DNA of 64,000 bases, taken from assembly GCA_963744145.1 (NCBI GenBank), contig CAVUSO010000001.1:2112001-2176000 (forward strand). The letters run 5' to 3'. Each line of letters opens with the position of its first letter. The stretch's first letter is position 1. The notes under the pieces were generated by a model that was not told the DNA's origin, did not search any database, and saw only the letters and a list, made by a program, of their open reading frames with translations. This DNA comes from an uncultured cyanobacterium. Lineage in GTDB: Bacteria; Cyanobacteriota; Cyanobacteriia; Cyanobacteriales; CAWUOF01. Below, piece by piece: positions 6,780 to 43,613 of this stretch. The translations under genes were made by a program, and so were the position numbers.

Positions 6780-7418
6780 ATGAGCGTTACTGTTTCCATT
6801 CAAGCTATTGTCCTTACCCCAGGTAGTCATATTACTATCCCTAATCTCTCTTGGCAAGATTTTGAAAGTATCCTGGCTGATTTAGGAGAAAAACGCAATA
6901 CCCGTTTCGCTTATTATCAAGGTATTCTGGAAATTATGTCCCCGTTAGCATTACATGAACGTCCTCATCGAATTATTGGGGATATTGTCAAAACTCTGCT
7001 TGATCTCCAAGGACGTAATTGGGAAGATTTTGGCTCTACCACTCTCAAACGTCCCCAAATTGCTGGGATTGAACCTGATACCTGTTTCTATATTCAGAAT
7101 GCTGACCGGATGCAAGGTTGTACCAATCTTAATTTAGCAGACTACCCACCTCCGGATTTGGCGATCGAGTGTGATGTGACCTCAAAAACAACTTTAGGTG
7201 CTTATACTGAGCTGGGAGTTCCTGAACTATGGATTTATAGTGATCGTCAACTAAAAATTTACCTTCTTGATAATGATAACTATCATGAATCTCTGATCGG
7301 TTTAAGTTTTCCTGATCTTCCCTTAACTACCATGATTCCCCAGCTAGTTGAACAAGCGATTAATCTGGGAACTAGTCAAATGCTGCGGGGTTTAAAAAAT
7401 CAATTTCGCTCGGAATAG
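6780..7418 (+). CDS. Uma2 (DUF820) family endonuclease-like protein
   Basis: SWQDFE, LEIMSP, EPDTCFY, PPDLAIECD, LGVPELW. Confidence 0.92.
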   Translation: MSVTVSIQAIVLTPGSHITIPNLSWQDFESILADLGEKRNTRFAYYQGILEIMSPLALHERPHRIIGDIVKTLLDLQGRNWEDFGSTTLKRPQIAGIEPDTCFYIQNADRMQGCTNLNLADYPPPDLAIECDVTSKTTLGAYTELGVPELWIYSDRQLKIYLLDNDNYHESLIGLSFPDLPLTTMIPQLVEQAINLGTSQMLRGLKNQFRSE

Positions 7419-10421: not shown

Positions 10422-11690
10422 ATGGATTTATTAGAATATCAAGCCAAAGAATTATTTCAGGAAAAGGGGATTCCCATCCTACCATCTCAAAGGATTGACC
10501 ATCCAAGAGACTTAAAAAACTTAAAAATTCCCTATCCGGTGGTACTGAAGTCTCAAGTCCACGCGGGTGGACGTGGGAGAGCTGGAGGAATTAAGTTTGT
10601 CCAAAATACCATCGATGCGATCGCAGCTGCCCAAAAAATTTTTAGTTTGTCCATTATGGATGAATATCCCCAAGTTCTGTTAGCAGAAGCTAAGTATAAT
10701 ACTGACCAAGAATTTTATCTAGCTGTGGTTCTTAATGCTAGCGCCAAAAGACCTGTACTTTTAGGTTCCCAACAGGGTGGAATGGAAACCGAAGCATTGA
10801 ACAATCCTGCTCAAATGGTAGTGGTAGATCAAGAATTTACTCCTTTTTATGCGCGACGTTTGGCCCTAAAGATGGGCTTAAAAGGGGCATTAATTCAGTC
10901 GGTGAGTGGAATTGTTGAGAAAATGTATCAACTATTTATTGAACAAGATTTGGATCTAGTAGAAATTAATCCCCTAGGAATTAGTCCAACGGGTGAAGTA
11001 ATGGCTTTAGATGGTAAAGTAACAGCTAATGATTATGCCCTAGGACGTTACCCAAATTTAGCAGCACTAAGGACTAAAAATGGACTTAAGATTTCGGAAA
11101 AACATGGGGAGATCAAAATAGAAAAATATTTCAGAAATGCTAATTTTGGCGAATTAGAAGGTAATATTGGGATAATTTGTAATGGTACAGGATTAGTAAT
11201 GGCTACGTTAGATTTAGTTTATCAAGCTGGAGGTAAACCAGCCAGTTTTGTGAATATAGGTGGTCATCCTGATTATCAGACCTGGACTCCGGACTTGACA
11301 GAATCCATTGAACAAGGCTTGGAGCTAATTACTCAAAATAAAAATGTTAAAGTTGTGCTAGTAAATCTTATAGGTAGTGCTACTACTAGTGACGAAATTG
11401 CGGAAACTATTGTTGCCTATGTACAACGTAAAAATCGTCCAAATAGTAATTCTCCCCTGCGCGATCCTTTGCTCCGTAATAATCCCAATGATTTAGCAAA
11501 TATTGATATCAATTTAGGTTCATCTGTACCGTTAAGTTATCGTAAAAATCGTTTTCCTAGTTTGATTGTACGTTTGATTGGTAAAAATATCGAGAAAGCT
11601 CAAGAGCAGTTAAGTTACCTGCAAATTCCCATGCTAGAAAATTTAGAAGATGCAGTTGCTCAAGCAGTTGCTGTAGGAGCAAAAAATTGA
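10422..11690 (+). CDS. sucC: Succinate--CoA ligase beta subunit
   Basis: MDLLEYQAKELF, VVLKSQVHAGGRGRAGG, VEINPL, GNIGIICNGTGLVMATLD. Confidence 0.95.
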   Translation: MDLLEYQAKELFQEKGIPILPSQRIDHPRDLKNLKIPYPVVLKSQVHAGGRGRAGGIKFVQNTIDAIAAAQKIFSLSIMDEYPQVLLAEAKYNTDQEFYLAVVLNASAKRPVLLGSQQGGMETEALNNPAQMVVVDQEFTPFYARRLALKMGLKGALIQSVSGIVEKMYQLFIEQDLDLVEINPLGISPTGEVMALDGKVTANDYALGRYPNLAALRTKNGLKISEKHGEIKIEKYFRNANFGELEGNIGIICNGTGLVMATLDLVYQAGGKPASFVNIGGHPDYQTWTPDLTESIEQGLELITQNKNVKVVLVNLIGSATTSDEIAETIVAYVQRKNRPNSNSPLRDPLLRNNPNDLANIDINLGSSVPLSYRKNRFPSLIVRLIGKNIEKAQEQLSYLQIPMLENLEDAVAQAVAVGAKN

Positions 11691-11798
11691 TTCTTCAAGG
11701 GTTAAATCAGGTAATTTTTCCCGAATAATTATGGTATAAAAAATTTTGTACTAATAGTTAAAGCTAACATTTATCAGGGTTGTGAGGAGGATTTTGAG

Positions 11799-12701
11799 AT
11801 GAAATTAACGCCAGAAAGTCCAGTTCTGGTACAGGGAATTACCGAAATCCAAGCTGCTAAACAGGTGGAGTTAATGACAGCTTATGGGACTAAAATAGTT
11901 GCCGGAATTAGTCCGGGGGAAGGGGGTCAAGAATTACAAGGAATTCAGATTTTTGATATGGTAGAACAGGCACTACCTGTAGTCGGTGCTGTTGATACTA
12001 CGATTATCTTTGTTCCACCTTATTTAGCTTTAGATGCAGCTTTAGAAGCGATTGCCGCAGGAATTCGCCAAATTGTGCTAATTAGTGAAGGGATACCTCC
12101 CTTAGATATGGTTCACTTAATTAGAAAAGCAGAAGCAACAGAAACCATGTTGGTTGGTCCTAATTCTCCGGGCATAATCATTCCGGAAAAATTACTACTA
12201 GGGACTCATCCCACGGAAATATATACTCCGGGAAAGGTAGGAATTATTAGTCGTTGTAGCACCCTCACCTATGAAGTTGCTTTACAGTTAACTCAAGCAG
12301 GTTTAGGACAATCCATTAGTATTGGAATTGGTGGAGATGCCATAGTTGGTTCTTCTTTTGCTCAATGGTTAGAAATTTTAGATGAAGATGACAATACAGA
12401 AGTGATTGTTTTAGTTGGAGATAATAGCGGTAATAGTGAAGAAATAGCTACTCGCTACATTACCGAAGCGATCGATAAACCAGTAATTGCTTATATTGCT
12501 GGTCGTCATGCTCCTCCGGAAAAAATTCTTGGTCATGCTAATACAATTATTGCTTCCTTTAATGCAGAATTAAGCACGGAAGTAGGTCGAGTTGAAAGCA
12601 AACTTGCAGCTTTTGCCAAAGCTAAAATTCCTGTAGCCGAACGTCCGTCAGAAATTCCAGCTTTGGTGAAAAAGGCACTGAAAAAGAAAAGGCATAAATA
12701 G
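11799..12701 (+). CDS. sucD: Succinate--CoA ligase alpha subunit
   Basis: VLVQGIT, LVGPNSPG, TLTYEVA, GIGGD, active-site GHA. Confidence 0.95.
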   Translation: MKLTPESPVLVQGITEIQAAKQVELMTAYGTKIVAGISPGEGGQELQGIQIFDMVEQALPVVGAVDTTIIFVPPYLALDAALEAIAAGIRQIVLISEGIPPLDMVHLIRKAEATETMLVGPNSPGIIIPEKLLLGTHPTEIYTPGKVGIISRCSTLTYEVALQLTQAGLGQSISIGIGGDAIVGSSFAQWLEILDEDDNTEVIVLVGDNSGNSEEIATRYITEAIDKPVIAYIAGRHAPPEKILGHANTIIASFNAELSTEVGRVESKLAAFAKAKIPVAERPSEIPALVKKALKKKRHK

Positions 12702-12712
12702 TTAGTAAATTC

Positions 12713-14394
12713 TTATTTATTGCCTGTTAATAAAGCTTGGGATGCTGATTCACCCGCAATCCGAATTTTTTGGGTTAATTTAATGCTAAATAAACTCAAA
12801 ATTGGCAAAAACATAAAAACATGATGACCATGAGGGTAGCTGTTGTCCATAATACTTGATTTTTTGTTTTCATCAATAGCATTATTTGAGCAATTACAGC
12901 GTAGATCAAAATTGCTATCCCTAAGGAACCCATACAAATTATGGCTTGAGTTTTATCCTGACTTTCGGTGCCAATTAAAATGTAGAATAAGGTGGGGATA
13001 ATCGCGATGATCAAATTAATTGCGATCGCTAAAATTGCCGGACTTTTTTCACCCCACAACAAATCTGAGACGATCGACTGTTTCCACCACTTTTGACCAA
13101 TTGATTTTTGCTGATACCTAGCCCAATCCTGTAAGCTTTGACGCTGAGGTGAGAGCATCATAATTAGCCCCAAAAACATCAGCAGATTTACAACTAAGAA
13201 AGGTAAATCGCTTAAGTGACTTCTTCCGAGGTAGAAAAATCCGAGGATGATTATTTCAAAACAAGCGACAAACAAATAACTTTGTCTTTTATTAAAAATA
13301 GTCGCTTCTGAATTGCGAAAGCAACGTAATAATCCCAGCCAAATCCACCCAGTCCAACAAATATAATTACCTAGGATTAGACTAGCTAAAATGACAATAT
13401 TCTGACCAATCGGTAAGTCAAACCATTGCCATTCTAATAAACTTTTATAGGAAAAATATAATTCTCCTATAGAGGAAAAATGTCCTTTATCTATTTCTAC
13501 TACATATTGTGAGTGAAACGCCATATATGGAATATATACCGTAGGATAAAATAAATTAAACCAGTCGGTTACCTGATGATTAATTGGCTGATTAGAGCTA
13601 GACAATGTTTGGGATGTAAATCCCAACAAAGTTAAAACTAAACCACTTCCTAACCAGGATTGAAATCCATTTAACCCAGAACTAACTAGCCCAAATAACA
13701 TGGCAGCACTATAGAAAAAGAGGCAACTAGCAGCTAAAATCCCATAGAAACTGAAAATTATCCAGACTGGAATTTGGGCTGATAAACCAGCACATAGATG
13801 TAAGGGGATCGTGAGAATAATTCCCCAATAAAGTAAACTCGGAACTCCTAGTAATTTTCCCACAAAAATTTTATAGGTTGACTGGGGACTGAGTCTAATA
13901 AAATTCAGAGTTCCTCGACGTTCTTCTTGAGTAATATCGTTGATTAGTAGATAAATACCGATCGTTAATAAAGCAAACACACTAATAAAGCTCAACCACA
14001 GAAAGATATCGAACCACCAGTGAGACCACTCAATAGTGGGATGTCCATTTGTCAGTAAACATTCCCGACTGATATTAGATCCTGTTGGTGGTGGTGGTGG
14101 TGGTGGTAAATGCCGTAAATATTCCCGACTGATACTGGGTGGTGGTGCAGGCAAATTCCGAACCCTGGAAACACTGTGTGATACATAATGGAAACTTAAG
14201 TAATTATCAGGATTGCAATCATTTCCTATCAAATAGCCATATAATTTAGTCCAAAAAGATAAAATGGTGTAGATTTGACTAAATAAGGATATCCCCGTGG
14301 CGATCGCGACGGAATTCCGATTCAACCGACCTTTAATTTCTCGGTATAACTGAGGGTTCCAGTTAGCAATTTTTTCGAGCCACAGTAGATTCAT
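12713..14394 (-). pseudogene. Permease paralogue P6 (loop class B), C-terminally frameshifted
   Basis: ORF 12796-14394 plus C-terminal piece to 12713. Versus P4 it has a 135-bp deletion and an 8-bp duplication (AAAAACAT x2) near 12807-12822. Confidence 0.8.
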
Positions 14395-14403
14395 GTTATT
14401 TAC

Positions 14404-15849
14404 CTATTTTTCCATTAACAGATTTTTAGAACCTGATTCACCTAAAATCTGAATTTGTTGAGTTAACTTCACACTCAATAAACTCAAAACACTTAACTGA
14501 CCAAGCAAACATAGCAATATAGTCATTCCTCCCACCTTTGAGATTTCCACTAAAGGAAAAGCCGATAGCAACCAAACCGCAGGATATTCGTCTGGATTAA
14601 CAGATAATAATGAAAAGAGCATCAGTGGTAAAAACATAATTACCATCAAGGTGATGCTTGCCCAATTTTGCAAACTTTGGCACTGAGATTATAGAATTAT
14701 AATTACACCAAAAAACAGGCATAGATGGAAAATTACTAAAGGAACATAACGAAAATAATTATTAGAGAAAGAAAGATAACCATTATCCCCATAGTAAACT
14801 ATTCCCAAAGAGTAAAACACCATCACTATGATGCTAACATAAGCAACAAAAAAATAACTTTTTTGTTTATTCAATATCGTCGTGCCTAGATGACGAAAGC
14901 ACTTTACTAATCCTACCCAACTCCACCCAGTGCATAAAACATAATTGCCTAACATCAGACTAGCTAAAATGATACTGTTATGAATGAGTGGTAAATCAAA
15001 CGATTTAGGAATATGGGAGATATGAAAACGGATGAATCGTTCTATGTGATAAATAAAGACATTAGGAAAAAACAAATTAAACAAATTAAGATAGAACAAA
15101 TTTTCATCAGGCTCATAAGGAGCAGCGACCAAAGATCTAGTGTAAGTCGATGTGAGATACAATGAAAATAAAACTAAGCCACTTCCTAACCAAGGTTGAA
15201 ATCCATTTAACCAAGAACTAGCTAGCCCAAATAACATTGCTCCACTATAGAAACAGATACAACTAGTCGCCAAAATCCCATAGAAACAGAGAATTAAGCC
15301 CACTGGGATTTGAGCAGTTATCCCAGTCAATAGATGTAAAGGAATCGCGAGCATTACTCCTAAATAAAGTAAACTAGGAACCCCTAATAATTTGCCGATC
15401 AAAGTTGTTGGTGTTGATTGAGGACTAAGTTTAATAAAAGTGAGAGTTCCTCGACGTTCTTCCTGTACTAGATCATTAATTAATAAATAAGTGCCGATCG
15501 TTAATAAAGCAAACACCAGGATTAAGCTTAAGCAAGGAAAAAGAAGATCTAAGCACCAGTAAGACCAATCAATCGTGGGATAACCATCCTTCAACCAACA
15601 TTCAACGTTATAAAAATTTTCGGGATAACGAAAGCGTAAATATTGATATTGACTACAGTCATATTTCCCATTATCCAACGGTTTAATCTCACCAGGTAAT
15701 TTGCTCCAGGCAAATAAAACTACCAGAATTTGCACAAATATGGATATCCCGATGGCGATCGCGACGGAATTCCGATTCAACCGACCTTTAATTTCTCGGT
15801 ATAATTGGGGATTCCAGTTAGCGATTTTTTCGCTCCAGATTAGATTCAT
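14404..15849 (-). pseudogene. Permease paralogue P5 (class C): nonsense codon plus in-frame 270-bp deletion
   Basis: TAA at 14689-14691 where P3 has TCA. The two ORF pieces are in the same frame. The deletion joins the CTTGCCCA copies seen at 17945 and 18215 in P3. Confidence 0.85.
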
Positions 15850-15878
15850 GGTCTTTACCTCGATAGATTCAAAAAGAG

Positions 15879-15990
15879 TCTACAAAAATGGTGAAAACAG
15901 GAGGATTGCTGCAATTGTCGTCATGCTCCTCCGGAAAAAATTCTCGGTCATGGCACTGAAAAAGAAAAGGCATAAATAGTTAGTAAATTC
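15879..15990. other. Duplication-junction spacer: P0 permease fragment fused to sucD 3' fragments
   Basis: 15879-15916 matches 23511-23548 (34/38). 15917-15990 matches sucD 12502-12537 joined to 12675-12712. Confidence 0.85.
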
Positions 15991-18900
15991 TTATTTATTA
16001 CCTGTTAACAAAGCTTGGGATGCTGATTCACCCGCAATCCGAATTTTTTGGGTTAATTTAATGCTAAATAAACTCAAAATAGCTAATTGACCGATCAACG
16101 CAAGTAAGATACTGATTCCTGTTGCAGATGAGATTCCTGCTAATGGAAAAGCTGAGAGTAACCAAATATCAGGATATTTTGCTGGAGTCAGAGATAGGAT
16201 GGTTAAAGCCACAGGTGGCAAAAACACGATCACCATAAGGGTGGCTGTTGTCCATAAGACTTGATTTTTTCTTTTCATCAATAGCATGATTTGAGCAATT
16301 ACAGCACAGCTCAAAATCGTAATCCCTAATAAAGCCATGCAAATTATAGTTTGAGTTTTATCCTTACTTTCACCACTAAATAAAATCAAGAATAGGGTCG
16401 GAATAATCGCGATGATAAAATTAATCGCGATCGCCAAAATTGCCGGACTTTTTTCACCCCACAACAAATCTGAGATGAGCGACTGTTTCCACCACTTTTG
16501 ACCAATTGATTTTTGCTGATACCTTGCCCAATCTTGTAAATTTTGGCGCTGAGGTGAGAGCATCATAATTAGACCCAAAAACATCAGCAGATTTAAAATT
16601 AAGAAATTTAAGAAAGATAAATAGTTAGAGGAACTTTTTTCGAGGAATAAAAAACCGAGGATGATTACTTCAAAACAAGCGACAAACAAATAACTTTGTC
16701 GTTTCTTAAATATAGCTTCTGGATTGCGAAAGTAACGTAATAATCCCAGCCAAATCCACCCAGTCCAACAAATATAATTACCTAGGATCAGACTAGCTAA
16801 AATGACAATACTCTGACCGATCGGTAAGTTATACCATTCCCATCCTAATAAATTTTCATAGGAAAAATGTCCTTTTGCTATTTCTACTACAGATGGTGAG
16901 TGAAACACCATATATGGAATATATACCATAGGAGAAAATAAATTAAACCAGTCGGTTACCTGAATATTAATCAGATAATTAGGTCTATACAACATTTGGG
17001 ATGTAAATCCCAACAAAGTTAAAACTAAACCACTTCCTAACCAGGATTGAAATCCATTTAACCCAGAACTAACTAGCCCAAATAACATGGCAGCACTATA
17101 GAAAAACAGGCAACTAGCAGCTACAATGCCATAGAAACTGAAAATTATCCAGACTGGAATTTGGGCTGATAAACCAGCGCATAGATGTAAAGGAATCGCG
17201 AGAATAGTTCCCCAATAAAGTAAACTCGGAACTCCTAGTAATTTTCCCACAAAAATTTTATAGGTTGACTGGGGACTGAGTCTAATAAAATTCAGAGTCC
17301 CCCGACGTTCTTCTTGAGTAAGATCGTTGATTAGTAGATAAATACCGATCGTTAATAAAGCAAACACACTAATAAAGCTCAACCACAAAAATATATCTAA
17401 CCACCAGTAAGACCAATCAATGGTTGGATGTCCATTTGTCAGTATACATTCGGTTTCATATATTTTATGTGGCAAATGATAGAAACGTAAGTAATTATAC
17501 ACATTGCAATCATATTTGCCATTAAAAGGTTCAATCTTACTGGGTAATTTAGTCCAAAAAGATAAAATGACCAGGATTTGACTAAATAAGGATATCCCCG
17601 TGGCGATCGCGACGGAATTCCGATTCAACCGACCTTTAATTTCTCGGTATAGCTGAGGGTTCCAGTTAGCAATTTTTTCGAGCCACAGTAGATTCATGTT
17701 ATTTACCTGTTTTTCCATTAACAGATTTTTAGAACCTGATTCACCTAAAATCTGAATTTGTTGAGTTAACTTCACACTCAATAAACTCAAAACACTGACC
17801 TGAACAAGCAAACATAGAAATATAGTCATTCCTCCCACTTTTGAAATTTCCACTAAAGGAAAAGCCGATAGCAACAAAAGCGCAGGATATGTGTGTGGAT
17901 CAACAAGCATCAGTGACAAAAACATAATTACCATCAAGGTGATGCTTGCCCATACTACTTGGTTTTTTCTTTTGAGCAATAGCACTAACTGAGCAATCAT
18001 AGCATAGATGAGAATGGAAATTCCTAATATACCCATGACAATTAGGTTTTGAGTTTTATTGGGAAAAATTAAAATCCAACTCAGGATCGGCAAAACCGCA
18101 GCAATGATAAAATTAATCGCGATCGCAACAATTGCGGGACTATTTTCACCCCAAATTAAATCTAAGATTAAAGACTTTTTCCACCATGTTTGATCAATTG
18201 ATTTTTGCTGATACCTTGCCCAATTTTGCAAACTTTGGCGCTGAGGTGATAGAATTATAATTAGACCAACAAACAGGAACAGATGGAAAACTAAAACAAT
18301 AAAATTAGATTCACCTCTTCCCAGAACGGAAAAAACCATCATTATCATGCTAAAACAAGCAACAAAAAAATAACTTTGTTTTTTGTTCAATATCGTCGTA
18401 CCTGGATGACGAAAGCACCTTACTAATCCTACCCAAATCCACCTAGTCCATAAAACATAATTGCCTAACATCAGACTAGTTAAAATGATACTGCTATGAC
18501 TGAGTGGGAAATCATGCCATTCCCAAGGAGCGAAGTTGTTATTCTTGTGAAAACGTTGGAATGGGCTTAGTTCAGAGTCTAAAAAAACATCCACAATCAA
18601 GAATCTAGGAGAAAACAAATTAAACAAACCTGTTTCATTATGATCAAAAAACAAATTAAAAAAATCTGTTTTATCATAATAAGTGATCACAGCGACACCA
18701 CTATACGAGTTTGTGACACACAATAAAAGTAAAACTAAGCCACTTCCTAACCAAGGTTGAAATCCATTTAACCAAAAACTAACTAGCCCAAATAACATTG
18801 CTCCACTATAGAAACAGATACAACTAGCAGCTAAAATGCCATAGAAACTGAGAATTATACCTAGCGGGATTTGAGCAGTTATCCCAGTCAATAGATGTAA

Positions 18901-19410
18901 AGGAATCGCGACCATTACTCCTAAATAAAGTAAACTAGGAACCCCTAATAATTTGCCGATCAAAGTTGTTGGTATTGATTGAGGACTAAGTCTAATAAAA
19001 TTGAGAGTTCCTCGATGTTCTTCCTGTGCTAGATCATTAATTAATAAATAAGTGCCGATCGTTAATAAAGCAAACACCAGGATTAAGCTTAAGTAAGGAA
19101 AAAGAAGATCTAAGCACCAGTAAGACCAATCAATCGTGGGATAACCATCCTTCAACCAACATTCATGGCTATAAAAATTTTCGGGATAACGAAAGCGTAA
19201 ATATTGATTTTGAAAACAGTCATATTTCCCATTATCCAAAGGTTTAAGCTCACCAGGTAATTTGCTCCAGGCAAATAAAACTACCAGAATTTGCACAAAT
19301 ATGGATATCCCGATGGCGATCGCCATCGGGAGACGATGAAAACGACCTTTAATTTCTCGGTATAATTGGGGATTCCAGTTAGCGATTTTTTCGCTCCAGA
19401 TTAGATTCAT
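15991..19410 (-). CDS. Fused double permease P3 (class C) + P4 (class A), 1139 aa
   Basis: Two WNPQLYREIKGR starts and two EE.RGTLNFIRLSPQS motifs. CAG at 17707-17709 replaces the TAG seen at 14404-14406. Second ATG at 17697. Confidence 0.85.
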   Translation of the reverse strand: MNLIWSEKIANWNPQLYREIKGRFHRLPMAIAIGISIFVQILVVLFAWSKLPGELKPLDNGKYDCFQNQYLRFRYPENFYSHECWLKDGYPTIDWSYWCLDLLFPYLSLILVFALLTIGTYLLINDLAQEEHRGTLNFIRLSPQSIPTTLIGKLLGVPSLLYLGVMVAIPLHLLTGITAQIPLGIILSFYGILAASCICFYSGAMLFGLVSFWLNGFQPWLGSGLVLLLLCVTNSYSGVAVITYYDKTDFFNLFFDHNETGLFNLFSPRFLIVDVFLDSELSPFQRFHKNNNFAPWEWHDFPLSHSSIILTSLMLGNYVLWTRWIWVGLVRCFRHPGTTILNKKQSYFFVACFSMIMMVFSVLGRGESNFIVLVFHLFLFVGLIIILSPQRQSLQNWARYQQKSIDQTWWKKSLILDLIWGENSPAIVAIAINFIIAAVLPILSWILIFPNKTQNLIVMGILGISILIYAMIAQLVLLLKRKNQVVWASITLMVIMFLSLMLVDPHTYPALLLLSAFPLVEISKVGGMTIFLCLLVQVSVLSLLSVKLTQQIQILGESGSKNLLMEKQVNNMNLLWLEKIANWNPQLYREIKGRLNRNSVAIATGISLFSQILVILSFWTKLPSKIEPFNGKYDCNVYNYLRFYHLPHKIYETECILTNGHPTIDWSYWWLDIFLWLSFISVFALLTIGIYLLINDLTQEERRGTLNFIRLSPQSTYKIFVGKLLGVPSLLYWGTILAIPLHLCAGLSAQIPVWIIFSFYGIVAASCLFFYSAAMLFGLVSSGLNGFQSWLGSGLVLTLLGFTSQMLYRPNYLINIQVTDWFNLFSPMVYIPYMVFHSPSVVEIAKGHFSYENLLGWEWYNLPIGQSIVILASLILGNYICWTGWIWLGLLRYFRNPEAIFKKRQSYLFVACFEVIILGFLFLEKSSSNYLSFLNFLILNLLMFLGLIMMLSPQRQNLQDWARYQQKSIGQKWWKQSLISDLLWGEKSPAILAIAINFIIAIIPTLFLILFSGESKDKTQTIICMALLGITILSCAVIAQIMLLMKRKNQVLWTTATLMVIVFLPPVALTILSLTPAKYPDIWLLSAFPLAGISSATGISILLALIGQLAILSLFSIKLTQKIRIAGESASQALLTGNK

Positions 19411-19439
19411 GGTCTTTACCTCGATAGATTCAAAAAGAG

Positions 19440-19550
19440 TCTACAAAAATGGTGAAAACAGGAGGATTGCTGCAATTGTCGTCATGCTTCTCCGGAAAAA
19501 ATTCTTGGTCATGGCACTGAGAAAAAAAAGCATAAATAATTAGTAAATTC
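19440..19550. other. Second copy of the P0/sucD duplication-junction spacer
   Basis: Near-identical to 15879-15990. Confidence 0.85.
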
Positions 19551-21365
19551 TTATTTATTGCCTGTTAACAAAGCTTGGGATGCTGATTCACCCGCAATCC
19601 GAATTTTTTGGGTTAATTTAATGCTAAATAAACTCAAAATAGCTAACTGACCGATAAACGCAAGTAAGATACTAATTCCTGTTGCAGATGAGATTCCTGC
19701 TAATGGAAAAGCTGAGAGTAACCAAATATCAGGATATTTTTCTGGAGTAAGAGATAGGATGTTGAAAATCACAGGTGGTAAAAACATGATCCCCATGAGG
19801 GTGACTGTTGTCCATAAGACTTGGTTTTTTCTTTTCATCAATAGCATGATTTGAGCAATTACAGCACAGCTCAAAATCATAATCCCTAATAAAGCCATGC
19901 AAATTATAGCTTGAGTTTTATCCTTACTTTCATCACTAAATAAAATCAAGAATAGGGTCGGAATAATCGCGATGATAAAATTAATCGCGATCGCCAAAAT
20001 TGCCGGACTTTTTTCACTCCACAACAAATCTGAGATGAGCGACTGTTTCCACCCCTTTTGACCAATTGATTTTTGCTGATACCTAGCCCAATCTTGTAAA
20101 TTTTGGCGCTGAGGTGAGAGCATCATAATTAGACCCAAAAACATCAGCAGATTTAAAACTAAGAAAGGTGAATAGTTCAAGTGATCTATTGACAGAAAGG
20201 AAAACCCGAGGATAATTACTGCAAAACAAGCGACAAACAAATAACTTTTTCGTTTATTAAGTATAGTCGCATCTGGATTGCGAAAGCAACGTAATAATCC
20301 CAGCCAAATCCACCCAGTCCAACAAATATAATGAGTTATGATCAGACTAGCTAAAATGACAATATTCTGAGCGATCGGTAAGTCAAACCATTGCCATCCT
20401 AATAAATTTTTATAGGAAAAATATAATTCTCCTATAGAGGAAAAATGTCCTTTATCTATTTCTACTACATATTGTGAGTGAAACACCATATAGGGAATAT
20501 ATACAGTAGGAGAAAATAAATTAAACCAATCGGTTACCAGATGATTAATTGGATGATTAGAAGAACTAGACAGTGTTTGGGATGTAAATCCCAACAAAGC
20601 TAAAACTAAACCACTTCCTAACCAGGATTGAAATCCATTTAACCCAGAACTAACTAGCCCAAATAACATGGCAGCACTATAGAAAAACAGGCAACTAGCA
20701 GCTACAATGCCATAGAAACTGAAAATTATCCCGACTGGAATTTGGGCTAATAAACCAGCACATAGATGTAAGGGAATCGCGAGGATAGTTCCCCAATAAA
20801 GTAAACTCGGAACCCCTAGTAATTTTCCCACAAAAATTTTATAGGTTGACTGGGGACTGAGTCTAATAAAATTCAGAGTCCCCCGACGTTCTTCTTGAGT
20901 AAAATCGTTGATTAGTAGATAAATACCGATCGTTAATAAAGCAAACACACTAATAAAGCTCAACCCCAAAAATATATCTAACCACCAGTGAGACCAGTCA
21001 ATAGTGGGATGTCCATTTGTCAGTAAACATTCCTGAGTGGTAGTGGTTGATGGTGGTCGTGGTAGTGGTGGTGCAGGCAAATGCCGTAAACATTCCCGAC
21101 TGATACTGGGTGGTGGTGAAGGCAAATTCTGAACCCTGGGAACACTGCGTGACACATAATGGAAACTTAAGTAATTATCAGGATTGCAATCATTTCCTAT
21201 CAAATTGCCATATAATTTATTCCAAAAAGATAAAATGACGAGGATTTGACTAAATAAGGATATCCCCGTGGCGATCGCGACGGAATTCCGATTCAACCGA
21301 CCTTTAATTTCTCGGTATAACTGAGGATTCCAGTTAGCAATTTTTTCGAGCCAAAGTAGATTCAT
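19551..21365 (-). CDS. ABC-2-like permease paralogue P2 (class B, proline-rich loop)
   Basis: About 12 TM segments, EERRGTLNFIRLSPQS...GKLLG motif. Confidence 0.85.
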   Translation of the reverse strand: MNLLWLEKIANWNPQLYREIKGRLNRNSVAIATGISLFSQILVILSFWNKLYGNLIGNDCNPDNYLSFHYVSRSVPRVQNLPSPPPSISRECLRHLPAPPLPRPPSTTTTQECLLTNGHPTIDWSHWWLDIFLGLSFISVFALLTIGIYLLINDFTQEERRGTLNFIRLSPQSTYKIFVGKLLGVPSLLYWGTILAIPLHLCAGLLAQIPVGIIFSFYGIVAASCLFFYSAAMLFGLVSSGLNGFQSWLGSGLVLALLGFTSQTLSSSSNHPINHLVTDWFNLFSPTVYIPYMVFHSQYVVEIDKGHFSSIGELYFSYKNLLGWQWFDLPIAQNIVILASLIITHYICWTGWIWLGLLRCFRNPDATILNKRKSYLFVACFAVIILGFSFLSIDHLNYSPFLVLNLLMFLGLIMMLSPQRQNLQDWARYQQKSIGQKGWKQSLISDLLWSEKSPAILAIAINFIIAIIPTLFLILFSDESKDKTQAIICMALLGIMILSCAVIAQIMLLMKRKNQVLWTTVTLMGIMFLPPVIFNILSLTPEKYPDIWLLSAFPLAGISSATGISILLAFIGQLAILSLFSIKLTQKIRIAGESASQALLTGNK

Positions 21366-21375
21366 GTTATTTACC

Positions 21376-21430
21376 TATTTTTCCATTAACAGATTTTCAG
21401 ACCCTGATTCACCTATAATCTGAATTTGTA
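21376..21430 (-). pseudogene. 3'-terminal stub of a deleted class-C permease gene
   Basis: Reads QIQIIGESGSENLLMEK*, matching the C-terminus of P3/P5 (QIQILGESGSKNLLMEK). Confidence 0.75.
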
Positions 21431-21438
21431 GTAAATTC

Positions 21439-23127
21439 TTATTTATTGCCTGTTAACAAAGCTTGGGATGCTGATTCACCCACAATCCGAATTTTTTGGG
21501 TTAATTTAATGCTAAATAAACTCAAAACAGTTAACTGACCGATAAATGCAAGTAAGATACTAATTCCTGTTACCGATGAGATTCCAACTAATGGAAAAGC
21601 CGATAGTAACCAAATCCCAGGACATCTTTCTGGAGTCAAAGATAGGATGGTTAAAACCGCAGGTGGCAAAAACACGATTACCATCAGGGTGGCTGTTGTC
21701 CATAATACTTGGTTTTTTCTTTTCATCAATAGCATGATTTGAGCAATTACAGCGTAGCTCAAAATCGTAATCCCTAATAAAGCTATGCAAATTATGGCTT
21801 GAGTTTTATCCTCACTTTCAGCACCAAGTAAAATCAAGAATAGGGTCGGGATAATCGCGATGATAAAATTAATCGCGATCGCCAAAATTGCCGGACTTTT
21901 TTCACCCCACAACAAATCTGAGATGAGCGACTGTTTCCACCACTTTTGACCAATTGATTTTTGCTGATACCTAGCCCAATCTTGTAAATTTTGGCGCTGA
22001 GGTGAGAGAATAATAATTAGCCCCAAAAACATCAGCAGATTTACAACTAAGAAAGGTAAATAGTGACTTCTTCCGAGACCAGAAAATCCGAGAATGATTA
22101 TTTCAAAACAAGCGACAAATAAATAACTTTGTCTTTTATTAAAAATCGTCGCTTCTGGATTGCGAAAGCAGCGTATAAATCCCAGCCAAATCCACCCAGT
22201 CCACCAAATATAATTAGTTATGATCAGACTAGCTAAAATGACAATATTCTGAGCGATCGGTAAGTCAAACCATTGCCATTCTAATAAATTGTTATACGGA
22301 AAATATTCTTTTCCTATTTCTACTTGTGAGGGAAACACCATATAGGGAATATATACATTAGGAGAAAAGAGATTAAACCAGTCGGTTACCAGATGATTAA
22401 TTGGATGATTATATCTAGACAATATTAGGGATGTAAATCCCAAGAAAGTTAAAACTAAACCACTTCCTAACCCGGATTGAAATTCATTTAACCCAGAACC
22501 AATTAGCCCAAATAACATTGCAGCACTATAGAAAAAGAGGCAACTAGTAGCTAAAATGCCATAGAAACTGAAAATTATCCCGACTGGAATTTGGGCTGAT
22601 AAACCAGCACATAGATGTAAGGGAATTGCGAGAATAGTTCCCCAATATACTAAACTCGGAACTCCTAGTAATTTTCCCACAAAAATTGTCTGGGTTGATT
22701 GGGGACTGAGCCTAATAAAATTCAGAGTTCCCCGACGTTCTTCTTGAGTAAGATCGTTGATTAGTAGATAAGTACCGATCGTTAATGAAGCAAACACACT
22801 AATAAAGCTCAACCACAGAAAGATATCTAACCACCAGTGAGACCAATCAATGGTGGGATGTCCATCTGTTAGGATACATTCGGTTTCATATATTTTCTGT
22901 GGCAAATGATAGGAACGTAAGTAATTATACACAGTGCAATTATATTTGCCGTTGAAAGGTTCAATCTTACTGGGTAATCTAGTCCAAAAAGATAAGATGA
23001 CGAGGATTTGACTACATAAGGATATCCCCGTGGCGATCGCGACGGAATTCCGATTCAACCGACCTTTAATTTCTCGGTATAACTGAGGGTTCCAGTTAGC
23101 AATTTTTTCGAGCCAAAGTAGATTCAT
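21439..23127 (-). CDS. ABC-2-like permease paralogue P1 (class A)
   Basis: 562 aa polytopic protein with the same motifs as P2-P6. Confidence 0.85.
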   Translation of the reverse strand: MNLLWLEKIANWNPQLYREIKGRLNRNSVAIATGISLCSQILVILSFWTRLPSKIEPFNGKYNCTVYNYLRSYHLPQKIYETECILTDGHPTIDWSHWWLDIFLWLSFISVFASLTIGTYLLINDLTQEERRGTLNFIRLSPQSTQTIFVGKLLGVPSLVYWGTILAIPLHLCAGLSAQIPVGIIFSFYGILATSCLFFYSAAMLFGLIGSGLNEFQSGLGSGLVLTFLGFTSLILSRYNHPINHLVTDWFNLFSPNVYIPYMVFPSQVEIGKEYFPYNNLLEWQWFDLPIAQNIVILASLIITNYIWWTGWIWLGFIRCFRNPEATIFNKRQSYLFVACFEIIILGFSGLGRSHYLPFLVVNLLMFLGLIIILSPQRQNLQDWARYQQKSIGQKWWKQSLISDLLWGEKSPAILAIAINFIIAIIPTLFLILLGAESEDKTQAIICIALLGITILSYAVIAQIMLLMKRKNQVLWTTATLMVIVFLPPAVLTILSLTPERCPGIWLLSAFPLVGISSVTGISILLAFIGQLTVLSLFSIKLTQKIRIVGESASQALLTGNK

Positions 23128-23204
23128 GTTCTTTACCTATGTGGATTTATGAGCTTTCATTCAAAAAGGTCGATTGATGTCGTGCTAATTCCTTTATGAT
23201 TACC

Positions 23205-23320
23205 CAATACAGTTCAGTTAAGAATGTTTTTGGGGATCTTGGCAGAAGAAGGGTGAAGCATTCGGGTATAATGTTACTCGTTTAATCGCTCAATTATCAC
23301 CCGAATGCTTCACCCCTACA
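23205..23320. mobile_element. MITE end CAATACAGTTCAGTTAAG plus REP hairpin (empty-site form)
   Basis: GGGTGAAGCATTCGGG...CCCGAATGCTTCACCC arms; the complementary end TTAACTGAAC..ATTG follows the copies at 54405 and 61475. Confidence 0.75.
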
Positions 23321-23364
23321 CCGGATTGTATTATTACTGACATCAGTTTTGAAAAAACATCTTA

Positions 23365-24921
23365 CTAATGAGCAGCAAATAAAGCTTTTGAAGAAGATTC
23401 ACCAGCTTTATTTATTTTTCTGGTTAAGTTCATCATCAAACCAGTTAAAATTAACCACTGAGTTAGAATTCCTAAGCAAATAGTGATTCCGGTTACCTGA
23501 TTTACCGCAGTCCACAAAAATGGTGAAAACAGTAGGATAGCTGTAATTTTTGTGCCTCCAATATTTAATGTATGCAACAGAAAAGGAGGTGTTAAAATCG
23601 TAAACACTACAGAACTAGATGCTAAAACTTTCCGTTGAGGATTTTTGACTAATAGCACAGTTTGGGCGATCGCGGCATAAATTAAAATCAAATTTGCACT
23701 CAGCAGTAATCCAGCGATTACCTCAATTTTGAAAAATATATTTGTTGACCAGAGTAACACCCAAGGAATCCAAATCGCGGCAAATATTACTAGATTAATC
23801 GCGATCGCAACTAATGCTGGACTTCTTTCACCCCAGATTAAATCTGTCCCAAGAGCAGCATCAACATTAAAAATAGACTGCTTTGTCATTTTTTTGCCAG
23901 ATCGAACATAACTTGCCCAATCTTGAACTACTTGTCTATGGGGAGAAATCAGAGCAATTAAAAACAGAAATCCGACTAAGTTTAAAGAACTAACAAACGC
24001 TAATTGATACAAGAAAGAATCCGCAGAATGACCTGAACTTAATGAGGGCCAGAAAAATCCTAATAGCCAAATTTCCCCAGTTGCGACTAACCAATAACTC
24101 TGCTGCTTATTCAATAATGTACCTTGGGGAAAACGAAAATAACGATTTACAGCTTGCCATGCCCAATAACTTGCCCAACTAAAAACTATGAGGATTAAAC
24201 TGTAAGGTAGTAACCAATGATCTCCACTGGGAAAAAAGAACCATTGCCAGTTACCAGTATGATTATTACTTGAGTTTTCCCAATTAAAAAGTATTTCAGT
24301 TATACCGATCACTGGTGTTGCTAAAAATCCAGCTAAAAGACTACCACCTCCAGCGAGAGATTGAACATTTTCTTGAGTTATACCCATCAATGTCATCAGC
24401 AAAGCACTTACATAAAATAAACAAAAAGTTACTAACCACAGTGCATATAAACTGATGACTGAACCAAAAAATACTCCTCCTGCTAGAGCCGATAACAAAT
24501 GTAGTGGTATAGTTAAACCTACACCAAGATAAAGCAACGCTGGTACTCCGAGCAATTTGCCCATCAATATTTTTTCGCTTGATTCCGGGCTTAATCTAAT
24601 AAAGTTTAAAGTCCCGCGATTTTCCTCTTTAGCTAAATCATTAATTAGCATATTTACCCCCGCAATTACTAAAAATAGGGGGATCATCCAGTTCAGCGCT
24701 CGAAAGATGATGAGCCAATGAAAATTCCACTCAGTGGTTATACATTCTATCCCAATTCTCCGGATACATTTGAGTTCAAAACAAGACATAACCACCAATA
24801 ATTGCACCACGAAAGAACTAACGGTAACAATTATTAAATTGCGCGATGTCAGTCTTCCTTTTAGTTCCCGAAATAATTGGGGATTCCATTCACCTAGTCG
24901 GTTTAGATATGCAGGTATCAT
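23365..24921 (-). CDS. ABC-2-like permease P0 (divergent paralogue)
   Basis: WNPQLFRELKGR, EENRGTLNFIRLSPES, DLIWGERSPA; overlaps the operon downstream of the ATPase. Confidence 0.85.
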   Translation of the reverse strand: MIPAYLNRLGEWNPQLFRELKGRLTSRNLIIVTVSSFVVQLLVVMSCFELKCIRRIGIECITTEWNFHWLIIFRALNWMIPLFLVIAGVNMLINDLAKEENRGTLNFIRLSPESSEKILMGKLLGVPALLYLGVGLTIPLHLLSALAGGVFFGSVISLYALWLVTFCLFYVSALLMTLMGITQENVQSLAGGGSLLAGFLATPVIGITEILFNWENSSNNHTGNWQWFFFPSGDHWLLPYSLILIVFSWASYWAWQAVNRYFRFPQGTLLNKQQSYWLVATGEIWLLGFFWPSLSSGHSADSFLYQLAFVSSLNLVGFLFLIALISPHRQVVQDWASYVRSGKKMTKQSIFNVDAALGTDLIWGERSPALVAIAINLVIFAAIWIPWVLLWSTNIFFKIEVIAGLLLSANLILIYAAIAQTVLLVKNPQRKVLASSSVVFTILTPPFLLHTLNIGGTKITAILLFSPFLWTAVNQVTGITICLGILTQWLILTGLMMNLTRKINKAGESSSKALFAAH

Positions 24922-24961
24922 TCATGATCTCCTTGAAAAAAAAGTATTGGCGATCGCAATT

Positions 24962-25909
24962 TTATGAAGCTTGTTGATGTCCCATTTTCAAGAAAATTGT
25001 CTCTAAGTCTTCTTGAGTCGGATAAAATTGAGTAATTTCTATCCCCGAGGTAATCAGCGATCGCAGTAAAGCTACACTATCTTCTGATGTTCCTGAAAAA
25101 TGCACTCGTAATTTTTGATCGGGTAATATCTCCATACTTTCAACCAAGGGATGTTTGTTTAATTCAGCTTGTAATATTTCTATGCTACCCAAGCTAGATA
25201 AAATAATTTGCTGACGACTAAGACGATGGTAAAGTTCTGCTAATTTAGCACTTTCCACCAAATATCCTAGTTCCATAATCCCGATCGAAGTACATAATTC
25301 AGCTAAATCACTCAAAACGTGAGAAGAGATCAGAATCGTCATCCCAGCTTCTTGTAAAGTTTTGATAATTTCGCGAAACTGCATTCTCGCGATCGGATCT
25401 AACCCCGAAACTGGTTCATCTAGCAATAACACGATCGGTTGATGGACAATAGTTCTCCCTAAACTGAGACGTTGTTTCATCCCTCGTGATAAGGTAGAAA
25501 TCTGACTATTACGCTTGTTAGTTAACTGGACTAATTCTAAAACTTCATATAGACGTTGGGTGCGTAAGGGGTCTTTTAACTGATAAAGACGGGCAAAATA
25601 ATCAAGATAGTCCCAAACTGTGAGATCATCATAGACTGGAAAATCATCGGGTAAATAGCCAATCCGTCGTTTTAAAGTGGGATTATTGCGATCGCGGATT
25701 AACCGTTCTCCATTTATGTAAATTTCCCCAATGGTCGGTTCTTCCGCAGTCGCTAACATCCGGATTAGAGTGGTTTTCCCAGCTCCATTGGGACCAATCA
25801 GTCCGTAGACTTCTCCTGTTTCTATTTGTAAATCAACATCGTGAACAGCAATATGTCGGTCAAATTGCTTAGTTAAACCCCTTGTATCGATCGCTAATTC
25901 TTTTGCCAT
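24962..25909 (-). CDS. ABC-2-type transporter ATP-binding protein
   Basis: Walker A GPNGAGKTT, signature LSRGMKQR, Walker B LLLDEP, SSH switch. Confidence 0.95.
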   Translation of the reverse strand: MAKELAIDTRGLTKQFDRHIAVHDVDLQIETGEVYGLIGPNGAGKTTLIRMLATAEEPTIGEIYINGERLIRDRNNPTLKRRIGYLPDDFPVYDDLTVWDYLDYFARLYQLKDPLRTQRLYEVLELVQLTNKRNSQISTLSRGMKQRLSLGRTIVHQPIVLLLDEPVSGLDPIARMQFREIIKTLQEAGMTILISSHVLSDLAELCTSIGIMELGYLVESAKLAELYHRLSRQQIILSSLGSIEILQAELNKHPLVESMEILPDQKLRVHFSGTSEDSVALLRSLITSGIEITQFYPTQEDLETIFLKMGHQQAS

Positions 25910-26038
25910 ATTGTTGTGCTAGAAACAATATATAAATCCTCTTGAAATCCAGCCTAACTCTTTTTTTCTGGATCTGCCAAGAGGATCGGGCAAATATGAT
26001 TCGGTTATTTATGGGACTGAAGTCCCTACTACCAACGG

Positions 26039-26836
26039 TTAGATTTGATTTGGATCAATACCTAATTCGCGTAGTCTTGCTTCTAGAAATTTAGCACGCT
26101 GTTCCGAGGCGATCGCACGTTGTTCTGCGACGATCGCACGTTGTTCCAATTCGACTACTCTTTCACTCGGAATCAGAATCAACTCTCCGGAATCTTTAAA
26201 CCACCGTAACCATAACCGTTCTAGGTTTTTATAACTACCTTGCCACAAACCTAAGCTTAATTCTAACTCCGGAATAATTAACCGTCCTGACTGTAATGTT
26301 GCGGCTTCATAGCGACCACCATGTAGTTGAAAAGCTTGCAACTCGTTAGTGGAACGGCTAAAAACTACATAATAGGGAATTCGCAAAATTTCTTCATAAA
26401 CTTGCCATTTAGTCGGTGGTTTTCCGGGTTTTTGGCTGGTGCGACCTAAATCTTCTTCTTCTGTGCCAGGAGATAGTAATTCTACCACTATATAAGGACT
26501 AGCTGGCTCTTGCCACTGTACATAACTTAACCTTAAATCTCGTCCTTCATAGAGTCTGGGGACACCAACTGCACCAAACCAGTCCGGACGTTTATACCAG
26601 TTAGGATGGTTCAGATCGTAATAAAGATTGAGATCACTAGCAGTAAAGACTAAACTTGGATCATAAGTGCCAGGAATAAAGGTCAATTCTAATAGTTGTG
26701 GTTGATCAAGATGAAATAAATCAGGCAAACCAGGTTCCTCCGGGTCTTCACTAGGTAAATCATACATCGTCGGTAAAGTGAGCCGAGATGACAGAGGTGG
26801 ATTTAATGGTACTGGTTGCTGTGTTGGCAAGGTCAT
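26039..26836 (-). CDS. Uma2 (DUF820) family protein with C-terminal coiled coil
   Basis: [33 protein letters not shown]; 21-bp repeats give EQRAI.. heptads; likely start ATG 26836. Confidence 0.88.
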
Positions 26837-26939
26837 AACAAATAGTGAACTAGGTTCTGATATGATTATAAATTTGCCAAGCAAGAATCTCCAATTTTTC
26901 CGCAGATTCTCCATCTACTATCTCACCTTCACTATTGAT

Positions 26940-28026
<1,087 letters not shown>

Positions 28027-28118
28027 AAGTCAACAGCGATTTCAGGTTTTTGATTTTCAAATGTGGCAAATCGGAAATCTCAAATCGCTAATTTTATCAA
28101 AGTTTAAGAGCGGAGTAG

Positions 28119-28385
28119 TTGATGGTAGAATCGGCAACAAGCTCATCCGGAAATCTCCCCGAATCGCTCACTTCTGGACAGTTTATGGAGCCGAATTTAC
28201 TCAAATCGGCTCGTCAACTTTATCGTGCTTACTGTGAAACTCATCCTTACCATCCTCAACGTCCTGTGGGTGTAGCTGTTAATCGATTGACTTATCGAGG
28301 AAAATTAATTTTTTCTGGCCAACCAGTGCTTTTGCCAGAAGAATGTTTTTTATCCTATAATCAAATTGCCTCGAAATTATGGTAA
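28119..28385 (+). CDS. Small conserved-looking hypothetical protein
   Basis: 88 aa between leuB and pilD; RPVGVAV...RGKLIF...PVLLPEECF. Confidence 0.65.
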   Translation: MMVESATSSSGNLPESLTSGQFMEPNLLKSARQLYRAYCETHPYHPQRPVGVAVNRLTYRGKLIFSGQPVLLPEECFLSYNQIASKLW

Positions 28386-28408
28386 AAGTTCTCCCTCTAA
28401 CTATCTAA

Positions 28409-29230
28409 ATGAATATCCTGATTAGTATAATAGCACCCTTAATCGTATTTGCTTTAGGTTGTTCTATTGGTAGTTTTCTCAATGTGGTAATTTATCGATT
28501 ACCCGCAGGATTATCAATTCTTTGGCCCCCGTCTCGTTGTCCCCACTGTTTGCATCAATTAGGAAAGTCTGAGAATATCCCTGTATTCGGATGGATCAGG
28601 TTAAAAGGACGTTGCGCTCATTGTCAAAGTTCTATTTCGATCCGTTATCCTGTGGTAGAAGGAATAACAGGGATATTATTTTTGCTGGTTTTTTACCAAT
28701 TTGGGCTATCTTGGCAAACTCTCGGTGATTGGACATTTATTAGTTGGTTATTAGCATTAGGATTAATTGATGTTGACACCATGACTTTACCAAATCCCCT
28801 CACTAAATCGGGATTAGTCATTGGTTTAGGATTTCAAGCAGGTATCGGTTGGGCAACTACACACTTGCTCGCAGGTACAATCAATGGTTTAATGAGTGGT
28901 GTCATTGGTGCAGTTTTGGGAATTTGGCTATTTGATATCATTACTTTAGTCGGCACAATTGCTTTTGGACAAGCTGCCATGGGGGGAGGAGATGTGAAAC
29001 TAGCAGCAATGATGGGTGTATGGTTAGGTTGGAAATATTTATTACTAGCAAGTTTTATTGCTTGTGCAATTGGTGCTTTTGCTGGTGGTGCAGCGATCGC
29101 CCTCGGTTGGATTGAACGTCGTCAACCGATGCCTTTTGGTCCTTTTTTGGCATTAGGTGCTGCTTTAACTATGTTTTTTGGGCAAGCTATTTTAGATACT
29201 TATATTCACTTCTTTTTTCCTCTGAGTTAA
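28409..29230 (+). CDS. pilD: Type IV prepilin peptidase/N-methyltransferase
   Basis: GSFLNVVIYRLP, two CxxC, ISIRYP, MGGGDVKL, MPFGPFL. Confidence 0.95.
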   Translation: MNILISIIAPLIVFALGCSIGSFLNVVIYRLPAGLSILWPPSRCPHCLHQLGKSENIPVFGWIRLKGRCAHCQSSISIRYPVVEGITGILFLLVFYQFGLSWQTLGDWTFISWLLALGLIDVDTMTLPNPLTKSGLVIGLGFQAGIGWATTHLLAGTINGLMSGVIGAVLGIWLFDIITLVGTIAFGQAAMGGGDVKLAAMMGVWLGWKYLLLASFIACAIGAFAGGAAIALGWIERRQPMPFGPFLALGAALTMFFGQAILDTYIHFFFPLS

Positions 29231-31919: not shown

Positions 31920-32093
31920 AGTTGATGATTATTAACTAATCGCAATCCGTTCGATGACTTAGAGCAGTTATCATCAAAATATCCGGGATAGGGATTAAAT
32001 TTATAGAAACTAATAATATTGGACATTTTCTAGCTAATTATAGTGAACGACCAGAAGAGCAACTCAATCCACTGAACGCAAACCACCAAAACT

Positions 32094-33839: not shown

Positions 33840-33989
33840 ATATGTAATTATACATAAATTTTAGAATTGCCAGTAGCTACCTGCGTAATTGTACTTAAAA
33901 ATTTAGGTTCCTAATATGATTTGTATCACACAAGTGGATTACCAATTAAGGCAAATTTATAAAGGGAATCATCAGTAATAAAAATCTGT

Positions 33990-37070: not shown

Positions 37071-37222
37071 TTATCTAGTAGCGATCGCTAAAGATTGACA
37101 ATTACTTGAGCAGTTTTTATGATTAGTAAAATTATCAACCATGATCAGATTCAGAAACTTTTCCGAGCCCAACTATTTTCCCAATCTCCACCCAAATTTT
37201 CCCCTAGCAAAAAGCAAAACTT

Positions 37223-40611: not shown

Positions 40612-40637
40612 ATCTAGATAATTGCGAGGAAAAACCG

Positions 40638-42283: not shown

Positions 42284-42299
42284 CACTTTTTGATATTAA

Positions 42300-43430: not shown

Positions 43431-43613
43431 GTTCAAAAAATATCGACAGCACAGTAAAACTGGAGCAAGATTTTTAAGTAATTATGACAATCTAACTCTC
43501 GCCTTAACTTTGTTAGACTTAAGTATAGCATGGATAACTGGCATGAAATTTTTCAAAATTATGCCAGATCATTCAGCATGGCAAAAAATATCTAACTCAA
43601 TCTACTTTTAATT

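Follow-up and report, generated by a model that had tools for sequence, protein, structure and literature searches.

The window analysed here is a stretch of 64,000 nucleotides from the genome of an uncultured cyanobacterium of the order Cyanobacteriales (assembly GCA_963744145.1, contig CAVUSO010000001.1, positions 2,112,001 to 2,176,000). Between positions 12,713 and 25,909 it carries one gene for an ATP-binding cassette (ABC) ATPase and an array of related permease genes. An earlier inspection of the letters, hereafter the sequence-only reading, had described the ATPase, a divergent permease P0, six closer paralogues P1 to P6 and the stub of a seventh, all co-oriented. All of these are present (Table 1), on the minus strand and in the order ATPase first, and the stub is a relic of about 57 nt of a seventh P1-type copy. 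The relic was recognized from its alignment with the P3/P4 and P5/P6 junctions and from a blastn match between 17469–17761 and 21149–21429 (87%). The P1-type copies fall into two subtypes, X (P3, P5) and Y (P1, P2, P4, P6). In self-blastn comparisons the copies are 88–91% identical to one another across 1.2–2.9 kb, and every paralogue in the 7.7-Mb genome sits inside the array. The repeat pattern is therefore not a product of chance.

The C-terminus of the ATPase gives a weak match to DrrA1-3_C. Its best NCBIfam models are DrrA (TIGR01188, 226 bits for a cut-off of 312) and GldA (TIGR03522, 190.5 bits for a cut-off of 402.6), scores that place it in a DrrA/NosF/GldA-like group, below both equivalog cut-offs. 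P0 to P6 have no Pfam match at E≤0.01 and no NCBIfam match.

Table 1. Genes and other features of the permease array and its flanks (positions in the window; subtypes and loop-1 classes as defined in the text).
Feature	Position	Strand	Basis or remark
ABC ATPase, 315 aa	24962..25909	-	PF00005, E 5e-32; sole nucleotide-binding domain (NBD) gene at the locus
P0, old divergent permease, 518 aa	23365..24921	-	synonymous divergence (dS) from P1–P6 saturated
Dispersed palindromic repeat, 17-nt arms, within the 237-nt P0–P1 spacer	23251..23315		3 copies in the window, 0 expected
P1, Y-type, loop-1 class A, intact, 562 aa	21439..23127	-	open reading frame (ORF), MAFFT alignment
Relic of a further X-type copy, last ~57 nt including TAG	~21375..21431	-	directly upstream of P2
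P2, Y-type, loop-1 class B, Pro-rich insert, intact, 604 aa	19551..21365	-	ORF, alignment
sucD-tail copy (11-nt spacer + 28 nt of sucD 3′ end), downstream of P2	19513..19550		blastn, 96% to 12674–12802
P3, X-type, loop-1 class C, stop lost	17707..19410	-	reads into P4
P4, Y-type mosaic, class A loop 1, rest P2-like	15991..17697	-	second half of the fused ORF
Second sucD-tail copy, downstream of P4	15952..15990		blastn, 98.4% to 12674–12802
P5, X-type pseudogene, loop-1 class C	14404..15849	-	386-aa ORF + 89-aa ORF
P6, Y-type, class B, truncated, 532-aa ORF (12796–14394)	12713..14394, including out-of-frame tail	-	alignment
sucD, convergent flank	11799..12701	+	NCBIfam succinate-CoA ligase alpha, E 2e-87; last 28 nt = duplication boundary

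Hydropathy and an AlphaFold2 model of P1 (predicted local distance difference test, pLDDT, 83; predicted template modelling score, pTM, 0.83) give 12 transmembrane (TM) helices, with both termini in the cytoplasm, K/R-rich cytoplasmic loops and the positive-inside rule obeyed. The N-terminal half of the model (residues 10–324) is closest to NosY (Z 14.7, root mean square deviation (rmsd) 4.1, 251 residues aligned), followed by PmtCD (14.1) and Wzm (13.2), with transmembrane domains (TMDs) of ABCG and ABCA proteins also matched; Foldseek returned NosY with probability 1.00 for the P1 model. By these matches this half is assigned the type V fold, which is marked by a six-helix TMD without domain swap, an N-terminal connecting helix and external helices between TM5 and TM6. 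In the structure search with the whole model, the C-terminal half retrieved generic bundles only. When this half was folded alone (residues 328–562, pLDDT 86.5), its top 15 structural matches were all type V TMDs (Z 8.6–12.9, 183–210 residues aligned), including PmtCD (12.9, 197 of 235 aligned), ABCG2 (12.8), NosY (11.4) and the second TMD of Rv1217c (residues 309–548, 9.1). Unrelated structures scored at most Z 8.3, with at most 104 residues aligned, and Foldseek ranked NosY first (probability 0.96). Each permease is thus predicted to comprise two type V (ABC-2, NosY/PmtCD-like) TMDs in one chain. A candidate view of the C-terminal half as a non-ABC six-helix extension, with obligate dimerization of the permease, was overturned once this half was folded alone. 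Pfam models are found in part of the family alignment of 49 members (A1): PF12679 in 17 (best E 7.5e-8), PF01061 in four and PF12698 in three.

The locus is predicted to encode a cyanobacteria-specific type V (ABC-2) exporter. The single ATPase gene would supply the NBD dimer, and each permease of about 520–600 aa, with two non-identical six-helix type V domains fused, would be the complete membrane part. The conserved motifs after TM2 and TM8 lie on the cytoplasmic side; there, the EERRGTL... and SPQRQ.LQDWARY segments, respectively, would touch the ATPase. Because each permease is predicted to hold two TMDs, one permease with an ATPase dimer would form a whole pump, and the copies would be alternative whole permeases rather than combinable subunits. 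The sequence-only reading had imagined paired, interchangeable membrane subunits, a scheme that this architecture does not favour. Operons in which the ATPase accompanies a single permease gene, as in genomes G007, G002 and G016, agree with the fused double-TMD reading. The substrate exported would be hydrophobic or membrane-embedded.

The MAFFT alignment bears out the sequence-only reading on the N-termini, which are conserved, on the EERRGTLNFIRLSPQS..GKLLG motif and on the three loops of variable sequence; the C-termini, which had also been called conserved, are so in P6 only out of frame. The variable loops connect TM1–2, TM5–6 and TM7–8 and are periplasmic in the 12-helix, N-in model, in line with the extracytoplasmic location previously supposed, and they match in position the periplasmic loops of type V exporters. 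The Cys residues bracketing loop 1 are a feature of the family: C84 never varies, and at least 90% of the aligned sequences also have its partner. P0 has a short C-x7-C version of this loop. In the P1-type copies loop 1 occurs in three classes, A (P1, P4), B (P2, P6, with a Pro-rich insert) and C (P3, P5), and both the alignment and sliding identity uphold the order A,B,C,A,C,B proposed before. Triplet repeats make up part of the class B insert. P6 contains a perfect (CCA)7 repeat at 14086–14107, which encodes a Pro run, and P2 has an imperfect 12-copy repeat in the same place, at 21037–21073; both are slippage-prone sequence within a periplasmic loop. Across 47 orthologues the loops are the least conserved parts (majority fraction 0.41, compared with 0.67 for TM and 0.73 for cytoplasmic segments) and the most length-variable, loop 1 alone ranging from 40 to 95 aa. 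Five independent paralogue sets from four other genomes show the same gradient, with identities of 28–45% in loops, 51–74% in TM segments and 52–86% in cytoplasmic segments.

An X copy is always followed by a Y copy, the two being joined stop-9 nt-start. The same 39 nt lie behind each Y stop; in the case of P6 they comprise the spacer and the final 28 nt of sucD, the convergent neighbour. From these shared tails and the X relic between P1 and P2, the array therefore reads as P1 followed by three (X·Y + sucD tail) units, the first X being deleted down to the stub. Sliding identity reveals that P4 is a mosaic, with a loop 1 91–95% identical to P1 and a remainder 95–100% identical to P2, and that P5 has undergone conversion to the Y type at its N-terminus. 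In a quick IQ-TREE analysis of 32 proteins, P1 to P6 form one clade (Shimodaira–Hasegawa-like approximate likelihood ratio test, SH-aLRT, 100), within which X (100) and Y (99) are separated, and P0 clusters with P0-like genes of G025 and G022 (96). Among 5.8 billion proteins searched, the closest one outside the genome's own copies is 47% identical.

The ancestral arrangement, still seen in the nearest relatives, is ATPase-P0-P1 between leuB and sucCD. G025, G036 and G151 likewise have sucCD at this flank of the locus, and leuB adjoins the ATPase gene, divergently, in G025, G013, G014, G019 and G007. P1 first doubled into the X·Y pair (dS about 0.7). Later (dS 0.12–0.21), the 3.5-kb X·Y unit was triplicated through unequal homologous recombination, carrying along 28 nt of sucD and yielding mosaics such as P4. 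Segmental duplication and recombination explain the order A,B,C,A,C,B.

The six close paralogues exist as described, but lesions in P3, P5 and P6 had been overlooked. P3 and P4 read as a single 1139-aa ORF (15991–19410) because the P3 stop TAG has become CAG (17707–17709); the P5/P6 junction is AAA TAG GTA AAT AAC ATG. In P5, a TAA at 14689–14691 stands in frame where the conserved LSPQRQ has its Ser, and some 92 codons near 14658 are missing without a shift of frame. P6 has lost about 127 nt near 12802–12814, which shifts the frame and removes the last two helices; the conserved 28 C-terminal codons persist out of frame at 12716–12805. Among the seven P1-type copies, three are thus damaged or a stub and a fourth is without a stop. 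Of 46 family-invariant residues, defined on alignment A1 (in which P1 and P2 are rows and P4 is not), P1, P2 and P4 keep all 46, P3 and P6 keep 43 and P5 keeps 39. P1, P2 and P4 are intact and under constraint; P6 and all X copies (the stub, the stop-less P3 and the dead P5) are in decay.

Ratios of nonsynonymous to synonymous divergence (dN/dS) were obtained by pairwise Nei-Gojobori counting, with regions compared among the Y copies and bootstrap 95% intervals. Whole-gene values are 0.45–0.65 for Y copies, 0.90 for P3–P5 and about 0.4 for X–Y at dS about 0.7. Among the Y copies, dN/dS rises from 0.15–0.34 in cytoplasmic segments through 0.36–0.55 in TM segments to 0.67–0.96 in periplasmic loops. 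By this counting the loops of all six Y–Y pairs lack dN/dS above 1, and the six intervals contain 1 and never exclude values below 1. The dS of the loops is elevated too (0.13–0.32), a sign of origins that are older or mosaic. The cytoplasmic values show that the copies were maintained as functional genes. Changes private to each Y lineage give dN/dS of 0.60 (P1), 0.46 (P2), 0.43 (P4) and 0.37 (P6); since the own changes of P6 still show this low ratio, its break is recent. The X lineages have nonsynonymous to synonymous changes of 34:10 and 31:7, about neutral.

We consider it probable that alternative, self-sufficient permeases sharing one ATPase were recently amplified in tandem and undergo birth-and-death, and that the loop variation reflects weak constraint. 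Variation would collect in the TM1–2, TM5–6 and TM7–8 loops as the least constrained parts of the family, and the copies would be in birth-and-death turnover, all served by one ATPase. The pattern that had suggested a diversified surface is what tandem birth-and-death with weak loop constraint predicts. A less likely alternative is adaptive diversification, in which paralogues are kept for loop-dependent substrate, partner or receptor-evasion properties and recombination in the array shuffles loop modules. It would fit the periplasmic position of the variable loops; in Rv1217c, a fused-TMD exporter, the TM1–2 and TM7–8 loops form the periplasmic gate (PMC11406275). Purifying selection elsewhere in the protein, the loop-1/body mosaic P4, a loop dN exceeding the flanking dS (0.26 in loops and 0.14 for TM dS in P1–P2) and the independent expansions of other genera, which diverge at the loops likewise and remain intact, also speak for it. 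Against this stand the loop dN/dS below 1 in 6/6 pairs with raised loop dS, loops equally unconstrained among single-copy orthologues, the low-complexity, triplet-repeat nature of the class B insert and the decay of three copies. Moreover, with a best outside match of 47%, there are no close strains for allele comparison.

The family is widespread, being present in 227 of 251 sampled genomes of the order and in 36 of 41 relatives. In the survey of 251 genomes five candidates were scored per genome, so that copy numbers are inexact, and 15 of these genomes, with many matches or candidates, were rescored in full. Identity across genera is 62–81% for the ATPase and 29–48% for the permeases. In 20 of the 21 other loci that were examined, the ATPase gene adjoins the permeases; at L017, L019 and the second G011 gene no ATPase occurs within the stretch read. 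The 14 genomes inspected in detail have one ATPase with one to three permeases, and ten further genomes with many candidates have at most four permeases. Four tandem intact paralogues (33–75% mutual identity) stand behind one ATPase in G128 (L028), G226 (L029), G110 (L030) and G151 (L031), and three in G090 and G066. The paralogues of the four-permease loci are deeply diverged; three G128 genes are 68–75% identical and mark an independent expansion. One ATPase with several permeases, as noted in the window by the sequence-only reading, therefore recurs elsewhere, and sharing of the motor among alternative permeases would be a trait of the family because other genera hold one ATPase with three or four old intact paralogues.

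Gene order in two of these loci, P0,P1,P0,P1 in G110 and P0,P0,P1,P1 in G151, could also reflect an obligate hetero-oligomer, in which X and Y (or P0 and a P1-type protein) are partner subunits and P3::P4 is a functional covalent pair. The stop-9 nt-start linkage of X and Y in two units and the relic, the old X–Y divergence at dN/dS about 0.4 and an N-in, C-in topology that permits fusion are consistent with such a pair. We nevertheless regard it as improbable, because each protein already has two predicted type V domains, three genomes hold the ATPase with one permease only, and all three X copies are damaged or near-neutral. The fused form also has no counterpart among the at least 100 matches listed to proteins of 626–1994 aa, the best 100 of which include none above 759 aa besides the window's own ORF.

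An assembly artefact, in which a misassembled repeat produced the copy number or the breaks, is very improbable. Short-read contigs of run X1, which may come from the source sample of this genome, cover 11500–26500 in 30 of 30 bins at ≥95% identity (66 of 95 at ≥99%), with no alternative joints seen over this range. The TAA of P5 is covered by a short-read contig (14635–15017) with zero differences. Copies differ by 9–40% and their junctions are unique, and what disrupts the genes is a substitution-type stop, the loss of a stop and two large deletions, not single-base homopolymer errors. On the other side, the sample appears to be of metagenome type, no short-read contig spans a whole repeat unit, and the adjacent leuB (Iso_dh; 26778–28026, plus strand), the only one in the genome, has a frameshift near 27706–27712. 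Its two ORFs share 88% and 81% identity with the G025 enzyme; the frameshift reflects an indel of the assembly or else a genuine loss in an otherwise housekeeping gene.

Several points weigh against amplification and turnover of self-sufficient permeases under weak loop constraint. The two halves of the permease have no detectable profile similarity to each other (hhalign probability 0.3%), and no ABC-2 Pfam model was found in any of 31 C-terminal halves; the second TMD is assigned from predicted structure only, and Z below about 13 is possible among helical bundles. The loop dN/dS intervals extend to 1.2–1.9, and pairwise counting is compatible with positive selection at a few sites. Purifying selection on each Y lineage, together with the three to four old intact paralogues in G128, G226, G110 and G151, indicates that multiple permeases are selectively kept, so that copy differences may matter functionally and not be mere slack. 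Finally, the leuB frameshift beside the array means that small assembly errors may be present. A bolder proposal, to which we give little credence, is 'one motor, many gates': across the order, an NBD dimer would serve up to seven double-TMD permeases differing mainly in three periplasmic loops. If it were true, each permease would export another substrate or engage another periplasmic partner, and unequal recombination would reshuffle the loops (compare the P4 mosaic) as a slow, cassette-like source of specificity.

Beyond the array, the palindromic element of the P0–P1 spacer consists of 17-nt inverted arms about 31 nt apart and occurs at 23251–23315, 54335–54399 and 61404–61468. The spacer copy falls where the short-read contigs show a depth spike to 45 and have loose ends, so the genome probably holds many copies of the element. 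The window has two genes of the Uma2 family (putative restriction endonuclease-like), at 6780–7418 (plus strand) and 26039–26914 (minus strand). The latter intervenes between the ATPase gene and leuB, which are directly adjacent in five relatives. A 611-aa ORF beside sucC (8361–10196, minus strand) has no Pfam or NCBIfam match. At 30612–50433 (plus strand) lies a dense block of signalling genes: one for an adenylate/guanylate cyclase, one for a REC-GGDEF-EAL protein and seven for histidine kinases or hybrid kinases, of which a 1514-aa member has PAS and GAF domains.

Other searches gave no functional hint. The genes next to 15 related loci have housekeeping roles (leuB, sucCD, miaB-like and others), a literature search found no paper on the family or on such arrays in cyanobacteria, and the ESM Atlas matched only unnamed cyanobacterial clusters. 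Rfam had no match in 11000–29000 of the window. Scans for promoters (47 promoter-like sites, 47.7 expected) and terminators (5 terminator-like sites, 10.2 expected) were uninformative.

Among known systems, NosFY (of NosDFY) and PmtCD provide the best structural matches of both permease halves, and the acidic E-x-E-x-G-T motif after TM2 presumably resembles that of NosY. Unlike here, where TMDs are fused and genes multiplied, those systems have one TMD per chain and act as dimers. The NosDFY(L) maturation system was rejected as an identity: no NosD, NosZ or NosL domain occurs among the 36 window ORFs scanned with Pfam, and the neighbours are leuB, sucCD and Uma2. The GldAFG gliding-motility transporter was rejected on the TIGR03522 score given above. 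Three of the best 100 long homologues bear the JGI label NatAB/COG1668 'ABC-type Na+ efflux pump permease', which is an automatic name only; some family members match PF12679 or PF12698, but the window proteins match no model.

The closest architectural parallel is Rv1217c-Rv1218c, a mycobacterial type V exporter (PDB 8k1m) in which an NBD homodimer serves a permease with fused TMD1 and TMD2 (PMC11406275). As here, a single NBD gene accompanies a permease, of about 530 aa in Rv1217c, that carries TMD1 and TMD2 of type V fold in one chain (PMC11406275). Structural comparison of 8k1m_B with P1 gave Z 10.2 for the whole model (rmsd 12.8 Å over the whole chain) and 9.1 for the C-terminal half. Unlike our locus, Rv1217c is a single permease gene without an array, and no sequence homology between them was found: when 177,635 PDB sequences were searched with a profile of A1, no ABC match appeared at E≤1. 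The locus is thus predicted to be Rv1217c-Rv1218c-like in architecture without belonging to the Rv1217c sequence family.

The family has neither its own Pfam or NCBIfam model nor a sequence-related solved structure in that PDB profile search. The analysis assigns to it, by prediction, a fused double type V permease architecture with a shared ATPase, and shows the independent recurrence of operons of two to four permeases, here seven. It offers a tractable case of how an NBD dimer picks among membrane parts and of what a conserved cyanobacterial exporter moves. A shared ATPase would be a parallel to the MsmK/MsiK-type importers, in which one ATPase is reported to power several membrane parts (PMC4519317). 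The latter are type I importers that have binding proteins and whose permease operons are dispersed, whereas here the predicted fold is of exporter type and the permease genes form one tandem array.

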